This document shows, in pieces, positions 4,035-50,921 of a DNA stretch of 53,048 nucleotides. Each line of letters begins with the position of its first letter. Position 1 is the stretch's first letter. The stretch comes from Balamuthia mandrillaris. Taxonomy: Eukaryota. The translations under genes were made by a program, and so were the position numbers. The notes below the pieces were generated by a model. The model made no database searches. It was given only the letters and a program-made list of their open reading frames with translations, and was not told the DNA's origin. The stretch lies in NCBI GenBank assembly GCA_031835245.2, contig JAVKOQ020000017.1:310001-363048 (forward strand), given 5' to 3'.

Positions 4035-7000
4035 CTAACCATCAAGATCGTACTCCACGCCCACGCTGATGGCATAGAGCAGCTTGCTGCGGAGGGCCTC
4101 CTTGGTGGTGTAGGCGGGGAGGTCCAGGCCGAAGCTGCAGGTGTGGGCCTTGGGCAGGAAGTTGTCCACCGGTTGGCCGCGCGGCGTGCGGTAGGCCTCC
4201 AGGTTGAACTTTTGGGTGAACTCGGCGGAGGTGGCGGGGATGCTCTCCCGCCCCCACACGAACACCAGGAACTTGCGCTTCTGCTCGGGGGTGAACTCGG
4301 AGAGCACGTTCCAGAACATCACCACCTCCTTGGCCGTTGCGCTTATGCCGTACCCATAGTGCGTGTTTCTCTGTTTGTTTTTTTTTTTTGTTTTAACAAA
4401 TAGTTTAAATAACGTATAAAACGAGAAACAAAAAATAAAAAAAAAGGAAGGAGCAAAACCTTTAACATTTCGACGTCAATGTCGCGATCACCGCAAACGA
4501 GGCGTTCCAACTCAGGAGCGGTGAAGAGACAAACGGCGGAGGAGGGAGTGATGGAGGCAAGGCCTTCCCTCATGCTGCGGATGGCTCCCTCGAATTCTTG
4601 AGTCTTGTACGCTTGCACCAGTTCCACATATTCTTCTCTGTTCTCCCATCTTTCATTTTTGTTTTTGGTTTTAAAGACGTCAATGAAAAAGATAAGGAGT
4701 GAGGAGAAGAGAATAGTTACGTGACAGGGATGTCGGCACCGCCTTCGACGAGTTCGACTTCTCTGCCATCAGCTGAGTTGGTGGTGAACGTTAGGAAGAT
4801 AAGATCACCAAACATTTCCTCGGTGATACCCTCCTTCTCCAAGTTGCGTAGCGTCTCTAAGCTCTTTACTCCCATCAGGTCCACTCCTTCTAAGTCCTCT
4901 AGTGTTATCCTTACTCCATCTCCTACCTATAATAGAGAGAGAAAATCAGGAAAGAAAAGAAAGAGCACAGCAAGAGAAGAAGGAGTTTAAACAAACCAAA
5001 AGCTTCCAAACGAGAGGAGCAAGGTCAAGGGCAACAGCCGTGGTGCTGGAGCCAGAGCGCAGAGCCATGCCCAACAGCCTTCCCACGAAATTAAAGAGGG
5101 ACAGATGGAAGGGGGAATTGGCGGATGGATTTGGGATGAGACACCCCTGGTGCTTTCCAATCTTGTGTTTAGTGTTGGGGCTTTCTATGAACAACGGCTG
5201 CTCTGATTGTATGGCCACTGTCTTCAAGTCTGTGCAGATTTGAGTGAAGCACTCACGATAAGGGCCACCTTTTGAGATGTTATTAATCTCAATAACAAAG
5301 AGAAGATGCAAGAGAAAAAGTAAGAAGAAAAAAATTTAGTAAGAGTTACCCGCATCAGTTGCTCTTTCGCCTATGAGCTTGACTTTGAAGGGCTGACGTC
5401 TGGTGCAGCGGAATGAGTCAGGACGGAGCGGTTGCAACTGTTTATAAGCCTGCAGCAACAAACACTGTTTCTCCGGATCATCTGATCAAAGACGATAAAT
5501 CAAAAAGAGAATAGGAAAGTAGAAGCCAACAGAAAAAAAGAAAGGGCTGATAAATAACAAACCAGTAGCATCTTGTCGGGAAAGATGAATATGAGGCATA
5601 TCATAGTAGCCTCCACTGCTGCGGTTGTTTAACACATTATTATAGTGCTTAAGCTTAACCATCATAAACAGCTTGTGGCGAGCTTGACAAGCTTGTTGAG
5701 CAATGCTGCGCCAGCGAGGATGAGCCCAAGGGCATGCTTCACCTCCTTGTTCTTGGGGTTCATTCGACTCGTTGTTACTTGCGCTTCCGTTTGTAGAGGT
5801 AGAAGAAGAGATTTGGTGGTTATCAAATGTGAAACCAGATGTAATGGCGTTCATCATCTTGGTGTTGTAATAGCGAAGCAATGTATAACGTTTACGAAGA
5901 AGCTCCAAAGAGATGCCGGAGAGGAGAGGGTATTTGAGGAGATCGTTGGAATTGGGCATGAGGAGTTCGCTCGGATGCAAAGAAGCGGAGAGATCTTGCA
6001 CGTCCAAATGTGTCAGTATCTGTTCGACATACTGCACTATCTGTTCGTCAAGTGAATCTGGTACCTCGGAAAACCATTGATTCACAGTTTGCATTGCGAC
6101 GATGATATTCTCTGCTGGAGAGTCGGAAAAGAGTTCGTCGTCATCATCGTTTTCTTCTTTGTCCTTTTCTTTCTTTTCCTCTTTGTCTTCTTCCATTTTG
6201 TCTTTGTTAAGAGAAGCAGGTGTTGAATCGACTTCAGAAAGGAGAGCTTTCTCTATGCTCTCGGTTGATAATATTGGCTTGATGACATAACGGAAGCCCC
6301 ATGGTCCTCCTGCTCACGTATTAAACCATAATAAGCACGAAAGGAAGGAAAGCAGGTAGAAAGGAATCATACCGAAAGCAGTTTGAGAAAGGAGTGGTTG
6401 AACTAGCTGTTGCTGTGGACTAAGAGGGCGCGGAAATTTGAGGAAAATGTGAGAGGAGCCTTGATGCCAACTGTTTTTAGTCTCGCATGTTTCGCACAAG
6501 GTATAATTGCAGTGGCCACACTCGAAACGAGCTCCAGCAAAGTCCTCCGCACGACATACCCTGCATACTGCTCCTTTGTGGCATTGAGCAGAAGCAGAGG
6601 CACCATCACTGGTTCCTTCGCTCTCCTCTTTCTTCTCTTCTTCGACTGTTTAACAAACACATGGTAAATAGACGCATACAATAGACACGTCCAAGAAAGA
6701 AAATATGAATGAACTAGCAACAAAAAGAAAGATAGAAACAATGACGAGGTGGGGATGGCACGCACCCATATCAAAGGACAAGGGTCCAGTACTTAGGCTG
6801 CCAGAAATAGTGCCACGTAGTTTCGCAAAGACGTGTTTTGCGGGATGCTGGTACTCGCCTTTGCTCTCGCATTCGCTGCACAGGTTGTATGGATCGGTAC
6901 ACGTTACGCAACGATAGCAAATGCCTTCAATGGCCACTTTTCCACAATGAGCACAAGAGCTGTCCGTGTGAATTGTTTCTTTTTTGAATAAGAGGAAAGT

Positions 7001-7536
7001 AAGTTTTGAGCGGAACAAAATAAGAATCCAAAAAAAAATAAATAAATAGGATTGTGAGAAGTACATACTCGAGCTGGGGGTAAAGCGAATGAATACACCT
7101 TCAGACGATATGTTGGACTGTAAAGAAAAGTTTAACTTGCTTTTTTTTTACGCAAAAAGGAGATAGGGGAGTAAAGAAGCAAAAAGATAGGGAGTGAGGA
7201 GAGGAAGAAAGATGACTTACCGTGCCACGGAGTTCAATTGCTTTATCATCATCAAAGCCAGAAGGGGAAAAAGTGATCCGATTTCCCCAATTGATGTCGA
7301 AGCGAGGATCCGAACTGAATTCCAATGAAGCAGCTCCTGGGATTTCCACATACTGTTCCCAAGTGTCCATTTCAAGAGGATGGTTACTCTCTATCACAAC
7401 TTCCTTGTTGGCTAATACAGGTGCAAACACAGTGAGCGGCAATGATTCTCGTTTGTTGAAATGTCTCAACATGTAACCTATTTCTAACATGTCCCATACT
7501 CGCTGTTGAGTTGGTCGAAAGGCTTAGTGCGATGTT

Positions 7537-7570
<34 letters not shown>

Positions 7571-10500
7571 GAGAGAGTGAGAGAGAGGTGGTCTTACTGT
7601 GTTCGTTTTCAACGCGCCAATGGTCTTCTGCCAATCAGCCTCCTCCCAGCTTACCTTCGTCGTTATGTGTGTGTCGTTGAGTTCCTTCTCCTTGCCTTTA
7701 TCTGTCTCTCGTGCATCCACTGCTGCGTTGTTGGAATGTTCCAGCAGGCGATACTGTCGTCTCCGTTGCAAGGCGATGGTCAATGCGACCACCATTTCAC
7801 AAAGAGCAGAACAGTATAGCAAGTTATCTTTAGTTCGAGGATTGATGCGCCACAGTTCGCCGGGAGAGGCAAGACGATGATATAACTTGAGCAAAGGACC
7901 AGAGAAGAGCTCGTCCAACAAAGTCCAGAGCTCTGGATTGACTTTTCTTAGAGCCGGTTCTTGTTTTGCGTCAGCAGTTGGAGGGTAACACAATTGCTCC
8001 AAGTTTTGAATGGTTCTGATGAGCCAACGGGCGGTGATTACGTTAAAAGGTGCACAACGGTCCAACGTATAGTCCGCCAGTAGACGAATGAACTCCTCCG
8101 AATAAATAAACGCTGCGGCCGAGCTAATGGTTGGTTTAGCTGCCGAAGACTCTTCCTTTTCTTTTTGTTTATCCTTATCTCCCTCTCCCTCCTTGCCTTG
8201 TTTGGCATCAGAGCCTTCTAAGAAAGACTTAGTGTCATCGCAGCGATGATAGAGGAGTTGCACGATCCAAAAGGAAAGCGTGAAGTTGAACGGGGAAAGA
8301 GCTTGCCAGTCATCCAATACCAGCAAATCGTTCGGAAGAAACGCGAACGAGATGCTATAATCGCCTTGGTCTTTGTCTTCCTCTCCAGTTTCGGAATTGT
8401 AGACAACGTGCTTGACCCACACCTCGCTACAATTGAGCCTGACAGGGGTGTTAGTATTGTGAGAACAAAAATCGAGCCGTTTGACCAGTTCAGTGCAGGA
8501 TGGATCCTTAAAAAAGTGAACTTCCGCTCCTACATTTTGGAAATACAGAGAAAACAGAAAAGATAATGAGTACTCCACAGAAGAACAACCCGAAGATGGA
8601 GAAGGGATTTAAAAATAAAGCATAACGCGAATGAGAAAAACGAAGCCCATACCAGTTTTGTGAGAACTATAGTTATTGAAAATGATGGCAATACCTCCAC
8701 CCCCACCAACGCTTACTTTGGCGGTGACGCCACATTTCGGCAGAGTAACCGTACCAAGAGATGGAAAGAAGGTCTGATGGCTTTCCGCTTTCTTTTCGGT
8801 GGTCTCCCTATACTTCTTGACCTCTGTGCTAAAAGTTTGCATGGAGCGAAGATTGAGCTTGCAGTAGTCCACAAGAGAAACGAACAGCGGATCGACGTCT
8901 GTCCAAAGATCGACCCACTTCTGACTTTCAGCTTCATCTTCAGAAGCAAACAGCCGACAAGATATGCAAAGAGAAAGAGAACATAAACGTCAGGAATGAA
9001 AAAAAAAAAACATTAAGGTTTGTTGCACGCTACCTTCTTTAGATTCGGAGATTTTAGGAGGAGTCGTACTGGACTTGTTGAGTCGAACAGGTTGCGAGAT
9101 AAGTTCCTCCAAGAATGGAGTAAAAGCTGCAAGCCCATCTTGTACGACTGGTTCTGTCGGTTTAGAAGAGTAAGAATCTATCTTGTTCCAATCGGAAGAG
9201 AGCAGCCTCGCGCCAAGAGGAATTAATGGTAGAGTGATATGCTTAGCAGCCAACAGTTGCAGAAATTTGATTAGACGGTCGTTAGAGCCAAAGGCATGTG
9301 TCATGGTCTTGCTAAGATGCGATGTGTTTGTGCGCGGTTCTTTTGGTGTCGTTGCCATCCAATATTGCTCTCTTTCCATCAACACTTGGCCCATTATTTG
9401 TCGCGCATAAATGACCGACAATTGGCTATCGGCTTGCATTCCTATTGATGCAAGAAAGGGTAGATGAGAGTATCAACAAAACAACCAGTAGAAGAATGAT
9501 GATGCGATCCTACCGATTGTTTGCAAGCGTTCTTTCTTGGCTGAAAACAGCTTGTCGTCAGGATGGTAGACATATTTGGAGGGGGCGTGGATGTCATTAT
9601 TGGAGAACCACCACTGTTCCAGAATTCCAGTTTCCGTATCATAGAATTGAACTTGGATGCGCCTTTTCATTTTAAGCATCACATAACCAGTCTTTCCAGC
9701 ACAGGGAATATCCTACATACAAAACAGAAGATAAATAGGAAAAATACTAGTTATTGAATCAAAAGCATAAAGAACGGAAGAAGCGCAAAGAAAGAAATAT
9801 GAAGTGCATGAATAGAAAATAAAAATAAAAGCAAACCTCGCCTTGATTTTTCTCGTGTTCTCTTTTTCTGATACGGAGAACCATGCCCTTTTGTAATTGT
9901 GGCAAATCTTGCTCTATCATGTTAACAGGAATGATACCTCCGTTTTCCTCATCATCGCTATCCTCATCGCTATCTTCATCTTCGTCAATAACGTTTTGTC
10001 TTCGTCGGCGAGCAATTGCAGTTGGTTCCTCTTCACCCACCAGTTCGTCTTCTTCCGCTTCGTCGTCAATCATTTCTGAGCTGATCACATTATTATTGTT
10101 GGTATTTGGTAACTCTTCGATGGGTGGCTCGTCATTATCAGCAGAGTCCATTCGATAATTGTAACTGCGATAGCCGTTTTCGAATTTCTTCCAAGTGGCT
10201 CTATCCAGCACAGGGCCAAATTCAACAGTCGCTTCAACCTGTTTCTCGTTTGCTTGCTCATCCGATTTCTCTGAGGTTTTGTCTTTGCCTTCATCTTTTC
10301 CGCTCTCATTATTTCCTTCCAGTTCCATTTCTTGCGGAGACAAATCCAAAATATCTTGAATATCTCCATCAGGCACTTGATTGAACAAAAGTTTCAAGTC
10401 AAACGACGGAAGGAAAAAAGAAGGTGATGTGGAAACAGAAGCCACGGAGGAGGAAGCATAAGTAGAGGATATATCTTTGTCTGCGTCCTCGTCGCGCCAT

Positions 10501-11362
10501 CGCCGCTTGCGATTGCTAAGCATGCGAGGCTCATCGTCAAGCGTAAAGTCTTCGTCGTCCTCATCCACCTTCTTTTTCTTGGATTTTCTCGAAGTACTCT
10601 TCTTCTGCTTCTGCTTCTGCTTCTTCTTTGAGGAGGCCTTGTCTTTTTTCTTGCTTTGCTTCTCGTTGTTTTCTTCAACTGCTTTTTGTTCCTTTGTTGT
10701 CCTATACCGAAGTTCATGAAGCAGTCTTTCCGCTTGCATTGAAGCGCTTTCCAAATGGAAAGTGGACAAAACCTCGTTCTTTTGGACTCCCTGCGCCGCA
10801 AACGCTGCTAACTTGTTTGTCCAGCCTGAATTAATTAAATGATCAGTTTGTATACAGCAAAGATATGGCGAAGGAAGAAAGAAAAGATACCTTGAGCGAG
10901 GAGAGGCGCCATAACTTGAGAATGATTGGAAAGGATGTCGCAAAGTGCCTTAAACGAGAAACTTCGAAGCTTGATGTAAAGGAATAACCTTGCTTTGCGA
11001 TCCGCCAAGTTCTCCACAACTTGGGTCTTTTCTTTGCCTTTGAGGGAAGATGAAGGAGGACAACCAAAGAAAGCCCCCACAACGCTGAGCAACGGCGTTA
11101 TCAGGGAGGTCAGGTCACAGCTTTTTGTTGGCGTGTCAGCAAATGGACGCAGCTTAGAAACTTCGCATTCCATTGTTACAGGAGAACCCTCCACCTTCAC
11201 TGGCACTATCGCCATTTGGGGAGAGTAGCTGAGTATGCGACCCTTTTGTACTACTCCTTCGCTCATATGAATTTCTACTCGAGCGCCCTTACGCAAGAGA
11301 TTTTTGTTACCACCTATTCTTGAAAACAAGCAGACATGACACTTCCGTCAAAAGGACCAATC

Positions 11363-11401
<39 letters not shown>

Positions 11402-11402
11402 G

Positions 11403-11454
<52 letters not shown>

Positions 11455-13407
11455 ACTGACCGATAATGCACAGGGCAGCGAGGGCAAACCAGACGTGCTC
11501 TGTAGAGTGTGGCGTCTGTTCACAACGAGAGAGGGCCAATATTATGGTAGGTAGTCGCTCCAAGCATTCCCTTAGTAGAGTGGCAATGGAGTCTTTCCAC
11601 ATGGAAGGAGCTGAGGGTTGAAGCAGCACTCGTATTAAACTTATAACCTCTTCCGCCAAACTTAGCATGGAGAATCCCGAGTTCCATGGCTTTCTGTAAA
11701 CTTTTCCTGTATTTATTCAAAATGTCGTGTTAGTTAAATCATTTTTGCAGTTGGTTAGTACATTTCGTTGTGATTCATTTTTTTTTTTGAATAACGACAT
11801 ACCTGGTGGCAGTTCGCTTGCTTTGACGGGATCTCCTTCGTAGAGGGCTTCTCCGTTTTCTATCTGTTTTTTCCTGGCTTTTGCAGTTTTCTTTGGTGGG
11901 TGTCGGTAGGTAACGCGGTGGTCTTTAGCGCGCTTGCGACAATTCTCACCAAGCTCGCACACTTTGGTGTCAACATTAGTTTGTGGGTCTAACGAAAACT
12001 ACAGAAAAATAGAGCTACCAAAACAAACACAAAACCAATACACACCTGGGAGCTCCTCAACGCGGAGTCTTTGAACCTCTTGTTTGCTAAGTGGTTGGAA
12101 TAAGTCGATGCCCTCCTTTTCCAAGTCCAATTGTTCATCGGGATTAAACACAGCAACAGATGGATAATACGCTTTTCCCACGCTTTGCAATAAAAGGGGT
12201 ATGAATCCAGCAGCAACGCTTGTTGAACGGTCAACGTTTTCTTGCTGCTCTTTGTCTTTTTCTTGTGCTTCGTTTTCTTTCTGCTTAGTAGAAGCACGAC
12301 GGCGTTTAATCGCAGGACTTGAGTTTTGTTCTTTCTTTTTCTCTGAAGACGAAGATGGTGTTGAGGTAGTAGCAGGTGAAGTTACGAGTAAGGCAACAGA
12401 AGTAGCATCCAACAAAGGCAGAAAACGTCTGCAAAGGCGAAGATTGATGGTTTGAACCCGAGGCGTGCCCAGTCCTTCCTGAACCAAAGAAAGCACAAAG
12501 GAACAGAGGCGCAGACAGCCACGATTCTGATTGGCCAAAAAGTAGGACTTGCTGCTGTCAAAGTGGCTGTTGAGCAGCGCGAGAGAGTCGAAGATGAAGC
12601 GATCCATGTTGCGAATGAGAATGTTGTTGAGCGGATCGTTGCGAAGGGAGTGAGGGGTCTCTTTCCACATGTTTTGTTGGTAGCGAGTTTCCAGGAGAGA
12701 GGCATAACGCTTCATGAAGGCTACTTCGCGCTCCAAAAGGTTGAACAACATTTCAAAGATTCGCTCTTGCAACGCTCTGACTTGCTCATTCTCTTGGAAT
12801 GAAACGGTTTCTCCTTTGTTGTTCTTGTCGTGGACGTCATTAGAAACAACATTCATAGCATTATCTTCTGCTGCCTCTTCTTCGTCGTGGTCAGAAACAA
12901 CTTGATAACCCAGACCTAAACGAGCCAAGAACAAGAACAATGTCCATGCCGATTCCAATGTCTGTAACTGTTGTTCGTGATCTGCATGCTGCGTTTTGGT
13001 CGTGCTTTTAGCGGAGGAAGATGAGGAAGAAGAAGGGCTAGATCTGTGTGTTCGTCTTTGTCTCTTGGAGCTACGCGGTTTAGTTTCTTGCTCTGTTTCA
13101 TCATTTAGTTCAACGTCTTCCTGAAGGATGAGTTGCACAAAGTCATCGCGTTGTTGATAGATGAGCTTTATGAGGAACTCCAAAACTCCGCTCTCAATCA
13201 GCATCTTAGCATCGCTGGCCTTTGTAAAGAACATTGTCAAAGAGTTGAGAACCAGTAAAACAAGCGGAGTATTGTCTCTGTGTGCTTCCAGGAAAGACGC
13301 CAGCAGAGAAAGCAAAGGCAGTAATGCTTCCTCCACTGCAGCTACCAACATTTTGCCTGAGCTCTGTATTCATCGTCACATTTTAAGTTTAACCAATATT
13401 AACCAAG

Positions 13408-13447
<40 letters not shown>

Positions 13448-14686
13448 GCGAAGCGGAAACGAACCTGAATGCAATTCAAGTAGTGAACTTGGTCCACACG
13501 GCGGTTAGTGACAAGAGCATTGACACTGCGTAAGCTATCGCTTATCCGCCACAACAAATCTACCTTCGCGGGTGTCAATTCAACCGAGCGCAAGAGAGAA
13601 TGCAGTGACTTAAATGCAGTCAAGAAGGAAAAAGCTCTTTCCTTTCGTTGTGTAATTACTCGTTTGAACATTGGAAGAGGAACGTCTTCTTCTCCGGCTT
13701 GAATGAAGTTAAGCACCTCATTGCATACTGCCTCAATGCGTTTCATCTCTTCCGGCTCAGATTCCTCTTTGGTGGCTTGTTTTCGCAGCGCATGAAGAGC
13801 TGACATCAAAGGAAAATAGAAATAGAGAAAGGAAATATTAATCAGAAAAATGGCAATAGAGTAAAGAATATAGCAAAGAAATGAAAAGCGGAGGCCTGAA
13901 GAGGCACCTTGCATTGTTTCGATCAAGAAATTCCAGTTAGGAGACACGACGGCAGTCCCACGCTTCGTTCTTTTTACGGAGGCGCTGTCTCCTTTGGCAA
14001 TCTCATGGACATTGCTGAGAGTAGCCGAACGAACTAGTCGGAAAAACCCCGAATCTTTTTTTCTTCCTTGTTTCTCACTCTGCTGCTTTCTGGAGTCTGA
14101 AATTTCTTGTGTCAATTCCTTTCGTTTTCTGACTTGTAGACCAACATTGACAGAGGCGATGCGTTGAAGTTGCTGGGGTCTAAGCCTCGTGCTAAGCCTT
14201 TTGTAAAAAAAGTAACACATCCCGTTAGTTTTAGATGTTCTCTCTCTCTCGCTCTCTCTCTTCAAACAAAAAAAGAGCGAACAATACAACGAGAGGAGAA
14301 TCCAATTACCTCTTATCTATGTTCTTGGTGGGTCGGATGGCAACGGACCCGCTGCTATTGTTCAATGTGATAGAGGAGGACATTTGGAACTGTACCCTTT
14401 TTCGTTTGTTTGTGGAGAGGCCGCCAGTCTTTCGGTCCGCAGAGGAATCACGGAAATAGACCAAAGCGCCCACAACTTCCAGCAAGAAAGAAGCCCTCAT
14501 AACGACCGCATCAGCAAGCCTTTTATAGGACTCCTTTGTGTGCCTTCCCCAATAGCATTAATCAGGTCAACACCCATTATCAGTTTGGAGAATAGGATAG
14601 AAATACTTACTTTGAGGAATAGTCCGATGAGTTCATACGCGCTCTTTGGTGTTTATTGATGAGCCAATGCTTAATCTGAGTGAGAG

Positions 14687-14730
<44 letters not shown>

Positions 14731-15452
14731 GGTATAATCATGAAAGCTGAAAACAGCAGGTTGATGAACCTTGTGTGATAACCGACAGATAAGCTGAATG
14801 CGCGGTGGTAAGGCAGACTGATATTCAGCATTTCTGGCACACGCAATAGCCTCGACCACAAGGTTGGTGTGCTTCAGCATTGCTGCAATAACTGCTCTTT
14901 CTGCATGGGCCACTGTTATGCAGAGAAAAGAGTTAGTGATAGTGAAGAGAAAGAATAAGGAGAAGAGGAGAAGAAAATGAGATGAGGCAAGGAAGCTCAC
15001 AAAATACGTCACGCTCGCTGTAGGTAGGGGATCTAAAAGTTGTATTTTCACCCATAAGCTTTTGCATACTTTCGAAGAGAACTTTGCCTTCTCCTTTGCC
15101 ATAAATGAAGTCCTCAAGAAAAGTTCTCGTGTGTTCCATTGGCTGAATGAGGACAGAGAAAGAGAGCGAGTGGGTAGGTGAGTGAGCGAGTGACTAGTAA
15201 CATCGAGAGCGGAGCAACAGAGGGAAGGCGCCAAAAGCGTACAATTGGTTGTTCGCCCCGCGATGGCGAGGAGGGTAATGACGAGGAAGAGTGAGGACGT
15301 TCGGTACTATTCAATTCATTTTCCAATCCCCCACAGAACAAAATGGAATCCAACCACTTGTTTAATTTTATCTCGTCGCTGAGCTTCGAGCCTTTTATCA
15401 ACAGTGAGACACCCTTCAACAATATGCGTCAGACAAAAAAAGCATTCTACAT

Positions 15453-15490
<38 letters not shown>

Positions 15491-18375
15491 CGAGCGAACC
15501 CTCGATACTAAGCAAGCAACAGTTCTCTCGAAATCACGAAGCCAACTCATAGTTGAAGCAACAGTTTCATTCTTTTCGTCAATCGGTTGTTCAAGAGTGA
15601 ATGCCACGATCTTGCAAGACCAACCCCACTTGTTTGTGTTGATATCTAGTGATTCAAATGCAAAACTAGCTGAGCTGCCTGGCACATAGAATGCATCCTT
15701 TGGCCAGTCGTCGGCCCCTCCCAAAGATGTAGCTGATGAAGAGGTATTATTTTGAAGGATAGATTCTATGCTAAGAAGTTGTCTTTTATCAGGTTTACAT
15801 GAAAGTTGGAGGCGGTCGTCAACACTTGTACAATATTGAGAGAGGAGAGGAGAGAGAGAGAAATCAGCATTTTGTTCGAAGAGGGTGAAGGAAACAAAGT
15901 TGAAGTACGTACGAGGTACAACATTTGGGATCGAATTTTAGCTGCAAGAAAGCAGCGCCAGGCATTGAAACGTTTTTGACAACATTCTCATGGTAAGGAT
16001 GGTTCGTTTCAACAACCAACGGTTCTGATTTTCGATACGGAATAGCGGCAGTTGAAACAGCATCATCCTGATAGATCCAATATTAAAGAGAATGAGAGAG
16101 AGTGGGAGAGTGAGAAAGAGATTAAAAAAATGTTACCAGAGAACAGAGCTTATAGAGGGTATCAATGGACGTCAAAAGGGAAGCCAAAGCGCCAGCTATT
16201 TGCGTAAGGTTGCTTTGAATCGCCAGTTTCTCCATCAAAGCACTTAGTGAGACTAACAAGCCAGGGAGAAGCTTGCCAACAAAAGTGGAATTCAACAAGT
16301 GTAGCAGAGCGGCTGCGTTCTCGCGGGTCTGTCGCATAGATATGAATTCTTGGCTCATCTTGATGACCTGTGAAGACTTGTCGAGGATCAATGTGAAGTA
16401 AGCTTGAAAGAGTTGGCTTATTTCTTCAGCCATGTTTGCATCTAACTCTGGTAGCAAATGCCAAAGATGGGCGAACAGGTCGTCTTGAAACTTAGCCAAC
16501 AACTGCAGATCCGTGGACTGAAAGTGGTCGCCGGAAACCGACAAAAGAGTGGAGGGGGGGGCCTGTCTCTCAGAACTCGAGTCCTCCTTGTTTATTTTTT
16601 TGCGCTTGCTTTCTCTCTTACAGAAAAAAAGAAGAGAAAATTCAATTAGCAAGCAGAGAGTGGTTGAGAGGGAGAGGGAGAGGGAGAGAGGGAGAGGGAG
16701 AGGGAGAGGGAGAGGGAGAGGGAGAGGGAGAGGGAGAGGGAGAGGGAGAGGGAGAGGGAGAGGGAGAGGAGAGGGAGAGGGAGAGGGAGAGGGAGAGGGA
16801 GAGGGAGAGGGAGAGGGAGAGGGAGAGGGAGAGGGAGAGGGAGAGGGGGAGAGGGAGAGGGAGAGGGAGAGGGAGAGGGAGAGGGAGAGGGAGAGGGAGA
16901 GGGAGAGGGAGAGAGGGAGAGGGAGAGGGAGAGGGGAGAGGGAGAGGGAGAGGGAGAGGGAGAGGGAGAGGGGAGAGGGAGAGGGAGAGGGAGAGGGAGA
17001 GGGAGAGGGTACTGTTTTATCAGATCCTAAAGAAGAGCTTTTTGGTTGGGGTGCACTAATGTTAGAGAGCAATTCGTGGAATGTCTGTATCTGTCGCTGA
17101 AAGAAAATAGACAACAGAGCCTCCACATTTTCTACAGTATATCTAGATAGTTCACGTTGAACTGCTTTCTTGAACTTTGGTTGCGCAGCATCATTGCTCG
17201 GGTCTATAATGGCAAACGGTTCCGTCTCGGGAAGGAACAAGAGAGTCAGGCTTTTGTCCTTTTGCAAGCACCAATCTGTCACCTCAGCACGAAGGAGGGC
17301 GTTGTCTGGTGGTTCCGGAGAGGTCTCGGTTGCACTGAATTGGGTTTTAAACAGAGATAAGAGCAGCTGTACTTGTTGTTGCTTCGTGTAAAACAGTTTG
17401 AATCCGGTAACCAGCACAGAGGCGGCCATTTTTCGCAGATTTTGATGGACCGTACAGGAGGAAGAAGCCTCGTTCATTTGTTGGGTGACGGTGATTTAAG
17501 TAATTGCAATAGAAGCTCGTGGATGTTGCTTAAGACATCTGTATCCTCTTTCTTAAGCAATAGAAGCTCTTCGGAGCTTGCGCTTCGTGGGGCTTCTCTC
17601 CACAAGGTCAACGAGTGGCAATGAAGTCGTAGAATACGGAGGCAAGCAAACAAGGCATACGTTTGACAAGCTCCCTACAATGTATTTTTGTTAGCAACTG
17701 GTAAAACAGAGGGGAGGAAGGGAGTGGGGTGACAAACGTAGGAGCTACAAACCATCTCCAGCCCGGAGGTATTCTCTTCCGCTTCGTCTCCACTCATCAA
17801 GTAAGATTCTGTAAGATGCTTAAGCAACTTATATGTAGCACTAAACGTGGAGGATTCTGTTTGCAGCGCAAACGGATGTTTTGTGAAGGATTTAGCATAT
17901 TCGGGGTTGCCTAGAAGAGTTGTTGTCCATCGTACTGTAAGTTGATCCACCGAGTACAAGAGCAATATCGCGATCTTCATCGGACTGCAATCTTCGGGTT
18001 GTTCCAACAATTCCGTTTGATAGCCATTGTTGACGGTATGATCTTTTTCGTCTTCCTTCTTTGTATTTGTCCCTACCTGTTCTGCTTGGTTGTAGGATTC
18101 AACAGAAATCTGATTTGACAAAAAGCGATTGCTGTTTTCGATGTAGTCGCGCTTGCGCAGGAACTTGGCTCTCATGGAGCGTGGGGGTGAGAATAGCACT
18201 GGAGGATAGGCTCGCTTAAGAAGACGGTAATGATGAGGAGGAGGAACATCACTGTTATTGTAGGCTTCCAATTGGCCATGTTGCTCCTTGTTATACCGCC
18301 AAATAAGGTTGCTGAGTACGTCATAACAAAAGGGGTCGCCAGCAACACGTCCTAAAGAGTGAAGAGTAAGTGAAA

Positions 18376-18412
<37 letters not shown>

Positions 18413-21302
18413 GGAGAAAACATCAGCCTTACCCAGTGTCTTACTATTGACATCTGCTAGCCTCCTACTAAAAGCACACACAGTGTACCCTTGATCGAGA
18501 GCGAAAGTTATTGCAAAAACGTTGGCTGCATCCGGTTTATCACGCGGGGCACTATTATTGCCAACAAAAAAGCAAGATTTGAGTGATCATGCCTTTCTCT
18601 AAGACAAGAACAGCAACAAAAGGAAAAAAAGAAATTGAAATTGAAAAGAGAAGGCAAGAAAGCAAAAAATGGTGCTTACTTTGGAGCCAGAATGACTAAC
18701 TCGAGGCCATTTGTAAAGAGGGAACACTTGGGTAGGCTGCCCACATGATCAAGATCCGGCACTAAAGATTACAATAAAAAGGGTGTTACTTCAAAGCAAC
18801 GGGGAGAAGCGACAACACAAAACAAAAGGTACCTTCCCGTTTGATGTGTTTTATGAGAGTAAGTTTATCTCCTTGATGCGGATCGTACACATCGATGGTT
18901 AGAGGACGCTCTATGAGCTGCGGGGAATCTATGAATGGATCCACTTCTGGACAAAGTTAAGCCAAATATTTGTTAAACATAACGGCTATTTACCTTGTTG
19001 AGGTGAATCCACTACGAATGTGTCAGGCGAGTTGTCATGAGCGAAGAAATTAGAGTCTGAAACGGTGTTCATGTCCAGGGTAGGCACGTTCTGGGAGGAA
19101 GCAGCCGTTGCTAAACTGTCAGCCTCAGAATCATCATTTGGTGTATCACTCTCCTCCTGACTGGAGGTGTGTGAAGCCTCGCCAACCATGTTATTGGCAA
19201 AAGAGGGAGTAGAGAAGGAAGCATTTTCTCCCATTCCTATATCAGATACGGAAGAATACGTCGGTGTAGTGGGAGAATAACCAGGAGATGTAGGGGAATA
19301 ACGTGGAGAAGTAGGGGAATAGCCGGGAGAAGAGGGAGAATAACCCGGAGAGGTGGGATTATAGCTTGGCGAAGTAGGAGAATAACCTGGAGAAGCAGGA
19401 GAACAGAGAGAGAGAGGGTTGTACGAAACAAAGTACAGATACTGGCCATCAGTTACCATTGCTGTGTTAAGCTGCACTGATAAAGGCATATCGACTTTGG
19501 CTAATACCTAATGGTAGAAAACAGTTACATAAGCGTAAAAGAGAAGTACTGCAGGAAGTGAAAGCTATCTTTGATTGCTTACCTCAAGTGTATCCGTACT
19601 GATTTTGAAGAGAGTATAGGGCTCATCTGAAGATTTGAAATAGAGAAAAGAGCTGCTGTCGCTAGAAGTACATAATCCCTGGCGAGTATCATACACACAA
19701 GCAAGCCAACAGTCATGCGCACCCATAAACACGTTATCCGGTCCTACAGAGTGAGCATAGCACTTGCCTTTCGTGTTACTACGCCCAGTTCCAATTTTAA
19801 AAAGTCCATTCACGTTTCTCACATAGACAAAGTGTTCATTGGCGGCAATACTAGTGGAAACGGGAAGCGAATGTCCAGGCCGATCGGTGGATTTGAGTTC
19901 TGGCTGGAATGCTATTCATAGAGAAAGATGAATTCAAACGAGAGAGAGAGAGAGAGAGAAAACAGAGAAGAACTTACCTTCAATAAACTGAGTGTCATTG
20001 AGAGTGAACACTTCCGTAGGTTTGAGTTGCGTTCTGGCTGATTCTATGTACTGCAAAACGGGAAGAGCTTCCCTCCACACAGATGGAGAAATACGGTGGC
20101 TGTAGCTGGCTTTTTCTTTGCTTTTCTTTGAGAGTTCGCGGTGCCCTTCCTCGGCCAATTTGTACAGAAAATGAACGAGATGCAGAGTCCCGCTCAAATT
20201 GGAACTAGCGGCAGTGTAAGCAAATAGTGTCTTCAACGCCTCTTCTCGTCGTTGAGCTACTTCTGCACCAGTCCCCTCTGTTTGTGTTATTTTTGTCATA
20301 TATTTTTTTGTTCGTTTGTTAATAAGAAACCGAAAAAACACAGCAACCGAAAAGATACACCAACGAGTTCAGTACCTGAGTGATTCAAGTTATTTACTAG
20401 CCACTTTTCAATGCAAGTTGATAGTTGAGCTGCGTGTAGCAAGGAACCCACATTCAAGAGCGATGAGGCGTGAGGAGGACGGGGCTGAATGGAGATATGG
20501 CCAATAGGTTGCAAAAGAGACTCGCGGAGTCGTTGACAGGTCTCAGTGAAGACAGCCGTGGGCTGGCCGTGTTGCGTCAACAAAGGAAGAAAGACCGAAG
20601 TGACCAGCTGTTCTGTGGGAAGAGGGCGGGGAATAACAGGATAGCTCGAATATAAAAGCATCTGTACAAACCAAAGCTTCTCTCAGAACGATAGAAGAGC
20701 ACGAGAGAGAGAGAGAGAGAGAGAGGAGGAGGGAAGGGGAGGAGGAGAGGAGGAGAGGAGGAGAGGAGGAGCGAAGGGGAAGGGGAGGAGAGAAGTTAGA
20801 AGCAGGAGGCGCTGAAGAAAGTTCAAACAAAAAGCAAAAGGGGCAGCAAGTGTACCTCCAAAAAACTCCAATACTTGAATCTGGCACGATAGACTTGCTC
20901 AGCAAGAAGCGCTCTGGCTCGCACCACCTCATGAAAGGTGGCTTGCTCGGCGTCCTCGGTGAGGGTCATCACCTTGTTAAACAGTCGTTTGGAGTGAAAG
21001 TAGGAGCGAGAGGCCAGCAAAGCCTCTCTTTTCTTTGCACTGTAGCTCTGATCCTGCTGTTGCCGTGATGAAGACAGAAATAAAGGGTAGGGAGTGATGC
21101 CGCTCTCAACCAAAAAGCGGTCGAGGGCAGCGGGCTCGGAGAAGAGGGAGGAGAGGTCCCATGAGGCCACCTGGATGCTGTGGCGAAGCCCTTCATGAAC
21201 CACCCCGGCCACCAAGGGTTGGTGGCAGCCACCACCCGCGGCCGCTTTCTTGGGATGATCGGAGGACGCAGCCGTGCTGCTACTGCTACTACTGCTGGCC
21301 AT
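4035..21302 (-). CDS. Giant HECT-type E3 ubiquitin ligase (HECTD4/ZZEF1-like architecture) with two ZZ zinc fingers, a PBZ finger, CUB-like segments and CTD-like heptads; many exons
   Basis: C-terminal [74 protein letters not shown] (catalytic Cys), stop at 4035. ZZ fingers at ~6820-6970 and ~6440-6580; ESNHP/ETNHPY CUB-like starts. An unbroken run of minus-strand exons extends to ATG (MASSSS) at 21302. That all exons form one gene is inferred from splice sites and the absence of an intergenic gap. Confidence 0.8.
16666..17008. repeat. Intronic (GAGGGA)n / (CCCTCT)n hexamer microsatellite, ~340 bp
   Basis: Near-perfect tandem GAGGGA. On the minus strand it lies between a GT donor (~17012) and an AG acceptor (~16620) of the HECT gene. 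Confidence 0.95.
19259..19405 (-). repeat. 21-nt coding tandem repeat encoding RNA Pol II CTD-like heptads inside the HECT gene
   Basis: Translates as [52 protein letters not shown] differences between units are mostly synonymous. Confidence 0.9.
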
Positions 21303-42049: not shown

Positions 42050-44725
42050 GGTTGAAATGGTGCTGGTTGAAGAGCATACTTTGTTACAGAAGTAGGTTCC
42101 TGATTATGCTTGTCATGAACCACAGTTTCATCATCATAAGGAGAAGTAGGGACACTCATTGAAGTTGGCGGTCTAGCAAGGATTAGAGCCGAAGCTGAGA
42201 TTGCATCTTGATGCAAAGCGGTTGTATGAGCAGAATTAGGAGATGAAGATGTAGGAACAGAATATTTGGCGGAAGGAGCAGATGAAGCTTGCATACGCGA
42301 GAACAGTCGTTCTCGGATAGGAGGATATAAAACCAACTCATCTACTGTGGGCCTGTCTTGAGGATCCTTGTTCATCATCCACTCAATCAGCCTGAAGAAT
42401 GAGTGCAATGAGACCATGTGGGGTTGCCAAAAATTTTACAAATTTTACAAAATGAAGGGAGGGTACCTTTTAAGCACAGGAGCACGCTTAGGTGTGTCAG
42501 GAAAAGAATCAAGGTGTCGGAAGGAAAGGATTTCTTTCTCCATGTCCTCAATTCTATCCTTCCCGCTTTGTTGTGGGGCTGTTTCTTGGTTGACACTTGC
42601 AAATGGAGAAGCAGAGTAGCACAGAAAGTAGAGAATAACACCTAGTGACCATACATCGCTTTTTTCGCTGTAGTCGTGTTTATACTGGCCACTTAAAGGA
42701 TCGGTTAACAACACCTATTGTAACAAAAATCAGCAAAGAACGGAATTCGTGGCAAGAAAAGTGTAACACGTTGCTCTTTCACCTCTGGCGCCATATATTC
42801 GATAGTTCCAGTGTTGCCTGTTCTCTCCAAAGCCTTAGCTATCTGTTCCTTGTGGTCACTGGCTTGGCTCATCAAAATGGGTTTCACACTCCCGAAATCG
42901 GTGAGAACAACAGTAAGGCCTTCTTCCACAACTTTAGTGGATCGTTCGGTAGGATCAGAGTGTAGTGAAGATGCTTGAAGTGGGTCATGCAGCAATAGGT
43001 TTTGTGGTTTGAGGTCGTTATGGCAGATATTGTGAGCATGAAGATGGCTCAGGCCGCTCAAGATATCCAAGAAAAAGTTCCAAATGAGTGTCTCGTTTAA
43101 GTACTCTCCATCTGCATCTCTGAGAGGATTGTTATCCCTTCCTTGAGGTGCATTTTTCCTTCGTTGCTCCCGTCTCCATTGTTTCAAACATTGTATCTTG
43201 GTTGCATCCATTGTCGAATCTCTGCTTCTTCGTTTGTTCATTACGAAGTCGTAGAGGTTGGTGCCTTGATTGGCGTATTCCATCAATATGAACAGAAAGG
43301 GAACATCTGAGGGGCCAAAGTCGGCCACCTTGGATCTCCTAGCCAGCTATGCTTGTACGCTATGCAATTTGGATGGTGTAGAGACTCCAGCGCCCGTACT
43401 GTTGAGTTGGGTGGATGATCAGAAAGGAAATCAGGAAAGAAGGAAGACAATTCGAAGAACGGGCAGCAAGCAGTAGCAAAAAAGGAGCAGAGAGGCAAAC
43501 CTTCTTTGAGAACATCTTTGAGACGTTGAACATCATTGCCAACAGCCACCTTCTTCACAGCATAGCAACCGAGGTCCACACAGTCAAGCATGTGCCGACA
43601 GAGGAAGACGCTTCCAAAGGCCCCTCTTCCAATAAGTTTTTCCTCCACAAAAAAGCGGTCGTAGTAGCCTGTGTTGAAGGCTTCATTTCTCAATCCAGCG
43701 TATCTGTTGTTGTTGGTGGTTGTTGTCCTTGTTGATGATGCAGTGGAAGTGCTTGTTGTTGTTGTTGTGCGAGATGATGATGTGCATGCAGCAGGAAATG
43801 GAGCAGCAGTTGTGTGGGTGGGAGGTTCGAGGGTGAGTAGCCTGAAGTAGTTCGGGGCAAGAAAACGGGAAGGTGTCATGAAAGAGGAGATCAAGGCAGG
43901 GCCGGGAGCTGATATCGTATGGGTCATGCTCTTCGACCGCCGAGATAAGGAGGAAGGTTTCCCAAAAGCTGTAGCTGCAGAGTGTTGTTGTTGATCAACG
44001 GAGGAGCGCACTTCATCTTCGCCTTCGATAGGCTCCGTTTCTGCAAAGTCGCTGACGATGAATGGCTGTTGAGCTTCAAACATCTCTTCCTCTTCCTCGT
44101 CCTCCTCCTCCGCATGAGAAGAAGAAAAGGAGGAAGTACGGGAGAGGGAGCGATAGCAATAAGGACAAAACCGACCCCCACCACTGGCGAGATTATTGGA
44201 AGGTTGAGAGCTCACTGCCATGGCTGCCGGTGTGTTGAAAGAGGAGGATAGAGCAGGAAGGTCGTTGTTGAAGCAAGAGGCAATTGGAGAGATGGAGGAA
44301 GTGGAGGGACCACCAGGAACAGTGGCGAAGCCGGAGGTGCAAAGATCGTTGGCAGCGTTGGTGCGGGGACTGCTGCTGCCGTTGTGTACGGAAGAAGGTG
44401 TGGCGGTGGTGCTGGGCGGAGATCTGACCACGCATAGTTGTCTACGGCGTGCATTGTAGACCACCATCTTATGGAGAAGAGGGTCATGGAGCACCACCAC
44501 CCATGACTCAGGATCGCGAAGCGTCAGCGCCCATGAACCAAAGGGCTCCATTGCTGTGCCAGCAGAGGGAGCAGCACTGCTTGTTGTGGTTGTAGTTGTG
44601 GTTGGTGCTGGCAACGAACGGGAGAGACGAGAATGGGTGGAACCATCTGTGGAAGACAGAGAGCGCCTACGTCGGCTAAGGGCGCTCCCTGAGGGAAACG
44701 ATAATCCTGGTGAGGCTGTTCGCAT
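41246..44725 (-). CDS. Iks1-like Ser/Thr protein kinase with predicted C-terminal transmembrane segments; one apparent 1-nt frameshift at ~43338
   Basis: AFNTGYYDRFFVEEKLIGRGAFGSVFLCRHMLDCVDLGCYAVKKVAVGND; LHHPNCIAYKHSWL; ADFGP..VPFLFILMEYAN; CHNDLKPQNLLL; LTDFG; RTGNTGTIEYMAPE; SDVWSLGVILY. These motifs resemble the fungal Iks1 family. Start codon uncertain (44725 or 44551). Confidence 0.8.
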
Positions 44726-47701: not shown

Positions 47702-48711
47702 ACTTTATTTGACCAGCACGCAATGGTTTAGTTTGGCGGTGGTCCTTGTCGACACTAATTTTTCTCGCTAAAAGTAGCAAGCACACGGACTTTTTTGCTG
47801 CTGTTTTGTGTCCCGTGCCATTTCTTTTCAGTCATTTGTAGGAAAATGTTGATGGGAATAACCCTGCGGATCAAGAAAGGGACGGCACGTAAGCGACTCT
47901 GGGTTTATTCACAGGAAAAAGGGGTGTGTACCAAAGTGTGTGCTTTGAATGTGTCGCGAGGAAAAGGGGAAAATAAAAAGGGCGAGAAAATTTGGAGGTA
48001 CCTGGCTCCATGAGGACCTCGGCACATGGTTGGCCTCGGGTAGGTTTTTCAACAACAACCCACCGGGGTTATTGACCAGATCGTTGGTGGGTGTCAGGTA
48101 CTGGTTCGGCGTTCCTGCTGGGATGGTATAAGTCTTACCATCGTTGCCTCCTGTGACTATATCCCCAGGATCGGAAAGGCTGCCGCCGATGCTGGCCTTG
48201 CTGGTGAAGCTGGCATGGAGAAAAGGAGTACTTTCGCTTGTACCGCCAACGGGAACGTGCTTTGAAAAAGACAAAGGGAGGAGAAGGAAGCAGAGGAATA
48301 GCAAGTTCTGAGAAAGAGAAAACCACAGCCGATCTCTCCGTACCAAAGGTGACAACCATTGAGGAGGTAAACAATCTGAGAGGAAGAGCTCTTGCGGTGT
48401 AAATAGCTCTCTATGGCCTTAAAAAAACGTTACAACGGGGACAACACAGTTGAGGGCCAGAAGAAGAGGTTAGCAGCGTACATCACGGACCCGAGCGGCA
48501 ACGTTCACTTTCTTACCCCAGCAAAACAAAGAGAGCTTAGTGAGCTGGGATTGTGCAGAAACTGAGCAACTCGGGTTTTTTTTGTACACATCTATTATGG
48601 GATAAAAAGGGGCTTGGAAGAAAACCCGACCTGAGGAGTAAAAGATTTTGCCCTGCTCGACAAAAATATCTCTGCTTGGCAAAAAAAAGTACCCGGTGGT
48701 TCTAGACGGAA

Positions 48712-50152
48712 TGATGCAACGCCTAACGTTTTTGCCACAAAAAAGTGCCCTTGGCTCTTCTTACATCTCGCGTATACAAGGCCTGTGTGGGTGGCACGAG
48801 CTCCATCGACACCATTCTTCGTTCTCGCTGTCAGGCAGCAGGTTGTTGGAGGTCATCAGTGAAAGCCGCACCCAAAGGAATAAGGCCCCCTTTTTAGCCA
48901 CCACTGCCAAGAAAGAATTGGTGGATACTATCGCATTCAAGGTCTCTGCGATGGTGCAAGGTGACTTCGTGGATACCTGTGGCGTGGCTTCGAGTATGAT
49001 CCATGGAGAAAAAGGCATCGGGAAGACAGCAACCCTCAAGGACGCCACTCACGTGCTCCCCAGTCTTTGTGAGAACTTGATACCTCTGTATGCTGACTAT
49101 CTGAAGGACGAGCTTCCGAAACCTTCTGTCCTGTTACGACAAGCTCTATTACAACGTGGCGCGATCATTCCGCATCCGTCACCGACATTGTCGAACCTGG
49201 ACAATCTCACTCGGTCCCTCGAGAACCACGATCTTTACTGCCTTTTCATTTCGGACGAAGTGGACAACCTCTACACATCCACAGCACAAAGGGAAGAGCG
49301 TCTTAAGATACTCCAAGAGTTGGCTTACCTCGGCAACTTAGATTCTGGAAGAGTGGTATCCATTGTTTGTGGCAGCTCTTCCGTACTTCCTCTGTTGTTA
49401 TCCAAGAATCTCACCAAGTACCCTCGCATCGCCCTAGAGTTCCTCTCGTTACCGATGCTCCGAACCTCAATGGCAGCAAGTACCAACCTTCCCGAATCAC
49501 TCAGGAGGTTAGCAAAGAAAACTTTGCCGCCATGGCCATCGCTTTCCGATTCCCCGATGAGTACTTGAATCTCTTCTACTTTTTGGCTGGTAACAATCCA
49601 CGAAACCTCAGCAAACTCCTCATCTCCGCGAAACATGGCAGACAAGGGGAACTGATCAGGCACATCAGTGAGTGGGACCCTCGCGCCGAGTTTACTCGTA
49701 CACAATTTGGACCCCTGATAAAAGAACTAAATACCGAGCTGATCAAGAAAAACCATGACCTACTGTGCGGCTTATACAACAAACCCTCCTTGAGCGAATT
49801 CCAGAAGACCATCGATACCACCAATTGGTTGACCGAGTTGCAGCCATTGACGGAAAGGGAGATAACTGAACGACTCTTACCACGTTTGAACCATACTCAA
49901 GAGAAAGACCTCTACGATCGGTGGTCAACTCCAGACATACTAGCTCTTGTGGATAAAGGATGGTTCTCCAGTTCCCCTCAATTGACACTCCTTTATCCAA
50001 GGACATGCTACCAACTTTACCTACAGTACGTGTCGTCCTTTTCGCAAGACAGACCTGGCACAAAGTTATGGCAAAATTGTTTTACCCCTGAATTTCGTAA
50101 CATGCTAGCTTCCTTTGTAGTGCAGTACGCCGCAGGCAAGTTCCTGCAATAA
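48712..50152 (+). pseudogene. Intronless P-loop NTPase (STAND / AAA-like) split by a single frameshift at ~49440
   Basis: Walker A HGEKGIGKT; Walker B LFISDEVD; IVCGSSS. After restoring 1 nt (GAG TT[n] CCT CTC) the frame continues as PLVTDAPNLNGSKY...LAGNNPRNL (GxP-like) to the stop at 50152. It could be an intact gene with a sequencing error. Confidence 0.6.
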
Positions 50153-50380: not shown

Positions 50381-50921
50381 TCACAAATCCAGACACCATT
50401 CTATTTCCTTTTTCTTTTGCTCTTCCTCCTTCGGGGTAAAGTCGTTCTCGATGTTGAAGGTCTGTCTGATTTCCTCCGGGGTCTTGCCTTGGATCATCTT
50501 GGCCACCGCATCGCAGGTCAGGTCCAGCAGGGGTTTGATGTCCAGGAAATTGGCGGCCAGGATCAATCTGAAAAGGGCCTGCTGGTCCAGATCCGACCAG
50601 AGCTTGAATCTTTCGTCGATGGGAGGGGGCTTGTTGTCGGCATTGGTTCTGGGCTTCTTGGTCGGAGCGGGTTCCTGTGGCAGAGGGTTGTCATGGTACC
50701 ACTGGCAGTATTATGGGCGGCGCCTCCTCTCCTTCCTCTTTGTGGCCACCGCCCAGTTCCTGTTCCTCCACGTCCTCCAGCATGTGTCTGATAGTGGAGC
50801 TCACCTTCACTGCTTCGGGATCCACCTCGAAAACAACCCCATCCTTGCTCTGGAGCTTTATCTTGGTGTTGGTCAGTTTCGTGGTTGTGATTATTGTTGT
50901 TATTGTGTATAAGATGTCCAT
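50381..50921 (-). pseudogene. SKP1: Intronless SKP1-like copy with internal deletion/frameshift
   Basis: KIKLQSKDGVVFEVD..VKVSSTIRHMLED in one frame; YCQWYH...[66 protein letters not shown] in another. The canonical PLPNV...LxKVIE segment is missing at ~50710. Confidence 0.85.

Follow-up and report, generated by a model that had tools for sequence, protein, structure and literature searches.

The window, a stretch of 53,048 nucleotides of Balamuthia mandrillaris DNA that was analyzed as a whole, carries on its minus strand what is likely the gene of a giant HECT ubiquitin ligase, with an array of heptads resembling those of the RNA polymerase II C-terminal domain (CTD) toward its N-terminus. 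The features of this locus are as follows.

17477–21302, minus strand: NCBI gene model KAL6075984.1 (996 aa, Balamuthia mandrillaris), matched at 100% by the upstream exon
4035–21302, minus strand: inferred whole gene, ~40 introns, ~4,450 aa (4,457 residues), from the model built here
19583–19911, minus strand: upstream exon, rich in beta structure and propeller-like, with a weak match to designed propellers (E=8.5e-9 as a sum over repeats; no single stretch is significant)
18994–19507, minus strand: array exon, with both splice junctions (introns 19508–19582 and 18947–18993) present in RNA
19385–19405, minus strand: flanking unit CSPASPG, which reads YSPASPG, a seventh heptad, in sequencing run X13
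19259–19384, minus strand: six core CTD-like heptads, 42 residues, defined by Pfam, unit alignment and RNA coverage
19238–19258, minus strand: trailing unit YSSVSDI, decayed, from which an acidic linker rich in Ser, Thr and Asp runs on to the exon end
17474–17500, minus strand: frame break, at which the upstream frame stops and the next frame is open from 17495
11897–11959, minus strand: PBZ-like C2H2 finger (E=1.8e-4; 21.8 bits, below the Pfam cut-off of 22.7)
6842–6970, minus strand: first ZZ zinc finger (Pfam E=1e-5)
6470–6580, minus strand: second ZZ zinc finger (E=0.0029, below the cut-off)
4038–5209, minus strand: HECT domain spread over several exons (Pfam PF00632 on three of them, E=2.8e-4, 1e-11 and 1e-24)

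Several other genes share the window. At 24830–27723 (minus strand), one ORF joins the C-terminal region of a malate synthase to an allantoicase repeat, suggesting a malate synthase-allantoicase fusion. Genes with Pfam MCU and EF-hand matches, the former a mitochondrial calcium uniporter (35288–36052, plus strand), the latter at 32177–33060 (minus strand), lie ~2.5 kb apart; the EF-hand gene presumably resembles a MICU regulator. Two overlapping long ORFs with an AAA_22-type NTPase match and no obvious introns occupy 48642–50149 (plus strand) and possibly represent a frameshifted mobile-element or effector-like NTPase.

The array extends over 19238–19405 of the minus strand and consists of six core heptads between degenerate flanks. 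A sequence-only reading of this DNA had described six tandem heptads, one of them a perfect YSPTSPS, plus a degenerate flank, and this description was borne out by reading the units individually and by Pfam PF05001, which matches at E=1.2e-13 with 50.9 bits, where the cut-off is 20.3. A single core unit is a perfect YSPTSPS. Tyr1, Pro3, and Pro6 are invariant in all six; positions 2, 4, and 5 show one variant each; and position 7 reads S, G, G, R, G, T, with serine in one unit of six. A six-frame scan of the whole window for Y[ST]Px[ST]Px returned five matches, all inside the array. At the nucleotide level, TRF reports a period of 21 with 6.5 copies and a 72% match, and the units are pairwise alike at 12–18 of 21 nucleotides, with no identical pair. 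Third codon positions are near saturation while Tyr1, Pro3, and Pro6 are intact, and all seven tyrosine codons are TAT. The TRF result, the PF05001 score, and the unit comparison rule out a chance or simple-repeat origin. The array thus displays the tandem Y-S-P-T-S-P-x heptads that mark an RPB1 CTD, but is not attached to an RPB1 polymerase core, the second mark of that domain.

The array exon is spliced and transcribed. Four sequencing runs (X13, X18, X19, and X20) were mapped on 18420–20690; the identity of X13 as RNA is only a guess from its listing. A spliced contig from X13 covers 18994–19504 without gaps and is joined to the neighboring exons at CT..AC introns. Raw RNA reads from X18 and X19 cover the array at a depth of ~3–4, with two X18 reads on each joint flanking the array exon, and none of the 12 mapped reads of X20 falls on the array. 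The array lies, as had been proposed, in an open exon, and this exon is kept in mRNA, as shown by the spliced X13 contig and the low-depth X18 and X19 reads. The earlier reading had named removal of the segment by splicing as grounds for abandoning its idea, and the exon is whole in RNA; for the same reason an intron made of a GT after the last beta-strand, a pyrimidine tract, and an AG is ruled out. No indel in the array is listed among the mapped runs, so the copy number appears equal in them.

How the array exon connects to the HECT exons requires closer scrutiny. The public name of KAL6075984.1 is 'DNA-directed RNA polymerase subunit'; its sole Pfam match is the heptad repeat PF05001, so the name is a misannotation. 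RPB1 core domains were absent by Pfam from the 29, 24, and 14 ORFs or proteins scanned, in agreement with the earlier claim that no RPB1 sequence lies nearby, and an RPB1 gene or fragment is ruled out. That claim's companion, that the array is embedded in a HECT ligase, fared less simply: ZZ and HECT domains do follow downstream on the same strand, but the array-bearing frame of the assembled DNA meets a stop at 17474–17476, ~12 kb ahead of the HECT exons, and membership of the array in the ligase thus rests on bridging one frame break. The break is likely a one-base offset at a short A-run, an assembly error. An alternative join by a weak 68-nt intron at 17469–17536 is less likely, and none of the candidate introns there resembles the RNA-confirmed ones. 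Bridging the break by one base gives a continuous model of ~4,450 aa, in which the introns are RNA-checked only within 18420–20690 and local errors are present near 11760–10890. It is quite likely, judging from this model, that array and HECT domain belong to one polypeptide.

Frame breaks also affect two other conserved genes of the window, which encode a kinase (near 43340) and Skp1 (near 50690); continuity across these breaks was judged from the motifs of each family. At 43286–43400 (minus strand), the kinase gene shifts by one base within the kinase domain and leaves no space for an intron, likely an assembly error. In the Skp1 gene, one short stretch at 50660–50720 (minus strand) can be read in two frames, each giving a different Skp1-like segment, as though the copies of a direct repeat had merged and what lay between them had been lost, either by assembly artefact or in a pseudogene.

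The remaining anatomy of the ligase model can be divided into its two ends and the region between. At the C-terminus lies the HECT domain, with the catalytic cysteine in its C-lobe, the two features that define a HECT E3; the motif AHTCSF is intact and the cysteine codon lies at 4137–4139. PDB HECT matches to the HECT exons come from several classes within a few bits of one another. The last HECT exon, 4038–4370 (minus strand), has by eye a much higher G+C content than the rest of the gene. In the middle, the PBZ-like finger retains the four zinc ligands, the glycine, the basic pair, and the last aromatic residue, with leucine replacing the first aromatic before the glycine, as compared with consensus residues given in the available part of PMC4756826. 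The model also holds nine basic, NLS-like clusters, and the weak PBZ match together with these clusters indicates that the ligase is probably nuclear. A purine repeat of 344 nt at 16666–17009, ~56 copies of a 6-mer, lies in a predicted intron; it keeps the frame open, and gene models may read it as PS/LS/PL repeats. SPRY, RLD, APC10, and PH domains gave no Pfam match in exons scanned singly, and a SPRY domain could be split over exons; PDB sequence matches of two further exons yielded nothing useful. At the N-terminal end, a region that may resemble that of KIAA0614/HECTD4, 14 of the 58 S/T-P sites of the model fall in the one 100-residue block that holds the array. A single-sequence AlphaFold prediction of KAL6075984.1 (pLDDT 38, unreliable) places strands on either side and coil over the array and acidic linker. 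Taken with the weak propeller match of the upstream exon, these flanking strands and the coil make it likely that the array occupies a floppy loop within a region of propeller-like character.

Sequences related to the protein outside the heptads are scarce in the collections searched. Among 59 ortholog candidates, the only match was KAL6075984.1 itself, and 0 of 98 proteins of 1744–4980 aa in the protein collection were full-length versions sharing the 330–490 region. A search of 1.84 billion representative proteins gave 811 matches; in the 150 that were listed, all 149 others align to the heptads only, and relatives outside the heptads may sit among the other 661. Metagenome searches returned 0 of 78 and, among 194, one short HECT contig. 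These searches brought up no ortholog or paralog sequence that spans the loop, so its long-term retention is without support. At 19031–19099 and 19469–19580, a few reads and contigs have loose ends or replaced letters and hint at a ligase paralog in the same organism; the loop lies outside their coverage.

In heptads of the YSPTSPS type, Ser2-Pro and Ser5-Pro are phosphorylated by CDK7/8/9/12-type kinases, and the readers are WW, CID, and Pin1-type proteins. We tentatively favor, at somewhat less than an even chance, a reading in which the array is a CTD-type phospho-docking loop of a probably nuclear HECT ligase of ~4,450 aa. The heptads would make up a floppy loop at the surface of the giant ligase, close to its N-terminus, and the loop would be phosphorylated at Ser2/Ser5-Pro by Pol II tail kinases. 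Once phosphorylated, it would dock WW, CID, or Pin1-type readers, and docking could either switch the ligase or bring in the readers, or complexes associated with Pol II, as targets of ubiquitylation, for instance where damage is marked by poly(ADP-ribose). With six to seven units, the array would serve as a local docking patch rather than stand in for a polymerase tail.

Close behind the docking loop, and a real possibility in its own right, stands a passenger origin, in which either captured RPB1 tail DNA or an amplified local SPxSP seed settled in an insert-tolerant disordered loop and is translated but does nothing specific. Codon usage within the array bears on both readings. Differences from the unit consensus are synonymous in 16 of 24 cases (16:8), against 30% synonymous sites (P=2.4e-4), and in 11 of 18 when counted as distinct events (P=0.006), which shows that the array codons were under protein-level selection at some time, whether in this gene or before. 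The sequence-only reading had attributed synonymous variation to selection in the ligase; the excess is confirmed, but the attribution to this gene does not follow, because a copied RPB1 segment brings the same pattern and the bias cannot separate the two histories. Capture of RPB1 DNA is a live origin because Gly7 units, in which the array is rich, typically mark the proximal end in true CTDs: of the 286 Gly7 heptads in 120 RPB1s, listed among 839 matches, 165 fall within the first fifth of their arrays, and in these same 120 the strings SPASPGYSP and YSPTSPG occur in 11 and 83 proteins, respectively. The RPB1 of Balamuthia is not among these 120. The uniform TAT codons are consistent with a single origin, and the loop running on into a long acidic low-complexity linker also fits a tolerated insert. 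Against a passenger, no two units are identical and third positions are nearly saturated, yet Tyr1, Pro3, and Pro6 persist; had the array grown in place, such divergent units with an intact motif would need selection in this gene.

Variation among the mapped runs speaks to the same question. These show 20 exonic differences from the window, 4 in the array and 16 outside. Within the array, two differences are synonymous, one changes Ser2 to Thr in the last unit, and one changes Cys to Tyr in the flank (X13). Both amino-acid changes keep or improve the motif, which counts against a passenger, in numbers too small for a test. Outside the array, in the same exons, 11 differences are non-synonymous (two in one codon) versus 5 synonymous, which suggests that the N-terminal region is loosely constrained, as a tolerated insert would have it.

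Heptads outside RPB1 are not rare, and the company they keep is relevant to the choice between a docking loop and a passenger. Pfam was run on the 149 listed heptad matches with a cut-off of 1e-5 for 131 proteins and 1e-15 for 18. RPB1 core domains are present in 46, 88 show the repeat only or nothing, and 15 have another named domain. Six of these 15 carry E3 modules (an IBR, a SOCS box, a U-box, and three RINGs, one RING protein having Phe-type instead of Tyr-type repeats), and a seventh carries a MATH domain; they include a RING-VWA protein from a plant and a MATH protein from a mussel. The binomial P for the E3 excess ranges from 5e-5 to 0.017 under an assumed, unmeasured background of 5–15%, and the count rests on 15 proteins, mostly singleton clusters of unchecked gene models, some of which may be chimeric. 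The recurrence of E3 modules among heptad bearers weighs against a passenger, whereas the occurrence of arrays in many unrelated, mostly singleton proteins weighs for one. In viral contigs, 10 of 16 heptad loci are RPB1-like, 4 of these as confirmed by Pfam and the others as judged by inspection; 3 more are tail fragments similar to those, and the last 3 are non-polymerase ORFs, none of which has an E3 domain.

Individual cases within these collections deserve mention. In heptad bearers P0052, P0106, P0123, P0077, P0021, P0092, P0025, and P0131, arrays lie beside IBR, SOCS, U-box, RING, or MATH domains, and P0131 has, by eye, an F-box-like stretch that Pfam does not match. The viral RPB1 homologs (L005-L008, L012-L016, L019) end in glutamine-rich repeats, then 5–10 YSPTSPA-type heptads and a basic tail, which gives these viral polymerases a tail resembling the CTD. 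At L003:3014-5101, a PARP-domain protein of a giant virus has a basic, floppy region that holds about five heptads similar to Y[N/I]PTSPS. In a body of literature made up of titles and abstract openings, in which subscription papers are mostly absent, no ligase and no other protein besides RPB1 was found described as bearing a heptad array. In the parts that were available, the Balamuthia preprint 10.1101/2025.02.25.640156 has no mention of RPB1 and nothing on the array gene, and PMC3646058 likewise has nothing on the gene.

Several lines of evidence favor the docking loop: an exon kept in RNA, invariant Tyr1, Pro3, and Pro6, mostly synonymous differences, run-to-run changes that keep the motif, the concentration of S/T-P sites, the coil prediction (pLDDT 38), the PBZ-like finger, the basic clusters, and the recurrence on E3 proteins. 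Against it stand ortholog and paralog searches that returned nothing spanning the loop, the lone Ser7 in six units, a PBZ match below cut-off that lacks one aromatic, the loose constraint of the surroundings, a synonymous pattern equally expected from RPB1 capture, an E3 excess drawn from 15 proteins, and a viral check with no E3 domain in its three non-polymerase ORFs.

It is improbable, though conceivable, that the array is a generic proline-directed phosphosite cluster (a multisite switch, Pin1 target, or phosphodegron for CDK/MAPK/GSK3-type kinases) whose likeness to the CTD is convergent and which binds no CTD readers. The array is the sole dense S/T-P cluster of the ligase model, and the freedom of position 7 with single variants at positions 2, 4, and 5 would suit such a cluster, but the tyrosine in every unit and the exact seven-residue period are not needed by one. 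Least probable of all, we consider, is a real stop at 17474, which would put the array on a separate 996-aa protein without HECT, or on a broken allele, and make the ligase a different gene or a pseudogene. Both the assembled frame and the NCBI model do end there, and the absence of the 330–490 region from the 98 larger proteins is in keeping with it, but the downstream frame is already open 21 nt ahead of the stop and leaves no room for a terminator or promoter, one offset restores the continuous model, the kinase and Skp1 genes break similarly, and no alternative intron resembles those confirmed by RNA.

A broader proposal, which we regard as doubtful, is that E3s of many kinds (HECT, RING, U-box, RBR, SOCS) have repeatedly and independently gained short Pol II-tail arrays as phospho-bait for ubiquitylating CTD readers, kinases, and phosphatases; a PAR-reading amoeba HECT would then use the bait to remove CTD-binding factors, or to retune them, at damaged, stalled genes. 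If the docking loop works, it would be a natural ligase wearing a copy of the Pol II tail, reversing the logic of E3s such as Asr1, which are said to read the CTD, and why heptad arrays recur on E3 proteins would become a testable general question. Even if the loop does not work, two practical points hold for Balamuthia: anti-CTD antibodies may detect a second, very large protein, and KAL6075984.1 is probably the truncated front of a giant HECT ligase under a wrong public name.

Comparison with known systems places the array in context. The other non-RPB1 heptad proteins (with RING, U-box, IBR, SOCS, MATH, VWA, FHA, cap methyltransferase, or viral PARP domains) share short tandem arrays of the YSPTSPx type in predicted floppy regions, but none is a HECT and none aligns to the Balamuthia protein outside the repeats. 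CHFR, an FHA-RING protein and PBZ-bearing E3 according to the available part of PMC4756826, is likewise a ubiquitin ligase with a PBZ-type finger; it differs in being FHA-RING rather than HECT, and the Balamuthia finger is below the Pfam cut-off, with PAR binding putative. Class I HECTs, the large HERC, KIAA0614, and HECTAm1 proteins, have ZZ fingers listed for HERC2 and SPRY in most families, according to PMC3673628. The Balamuthia ligase shares with these giants its very large size, C-terminal HECT, and ZZ fingers; it differs in that the scanned exons match no SPRY, RLD, APC10, or PH domain, and section 13 of PMC3673628 mentions neither heptads nor PBZ for them.

The nearest described mimic, as far as the accessible text of PMC4186968 allows the comparison, is the NIM of Trf4, a single C-terminal 9-residue CTD mimic bound by the Nrd1 CID, with binding shown. 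Both are CTD-like motifs on a non-polymerase protein that could compete for a CTD reader, but the Balamuthia array is tandem and near-consensus, and a putative ligand of such readers. With the RPB1 CTD itself (PF05001), the array shares the seven-residue period, Tyr1/Pro3/Pro6, Ser/Thr at positions 2 and 5, one perfect unit, and Gly7 units like those found proximally in real CTDs. It differs from the CTD in three respects. First, it is internal, at residues ~489–537 of ~4,450, and not C-terminal. Second, it has 6–7 units, against 30-odd in the top RPB1 matches. Third, its protein has no polymerase core, and the acidic linker and ~3,900 more residues follow. The array falls outside the RPB1 CTD family, though on a local scale it may work as a CTD does.
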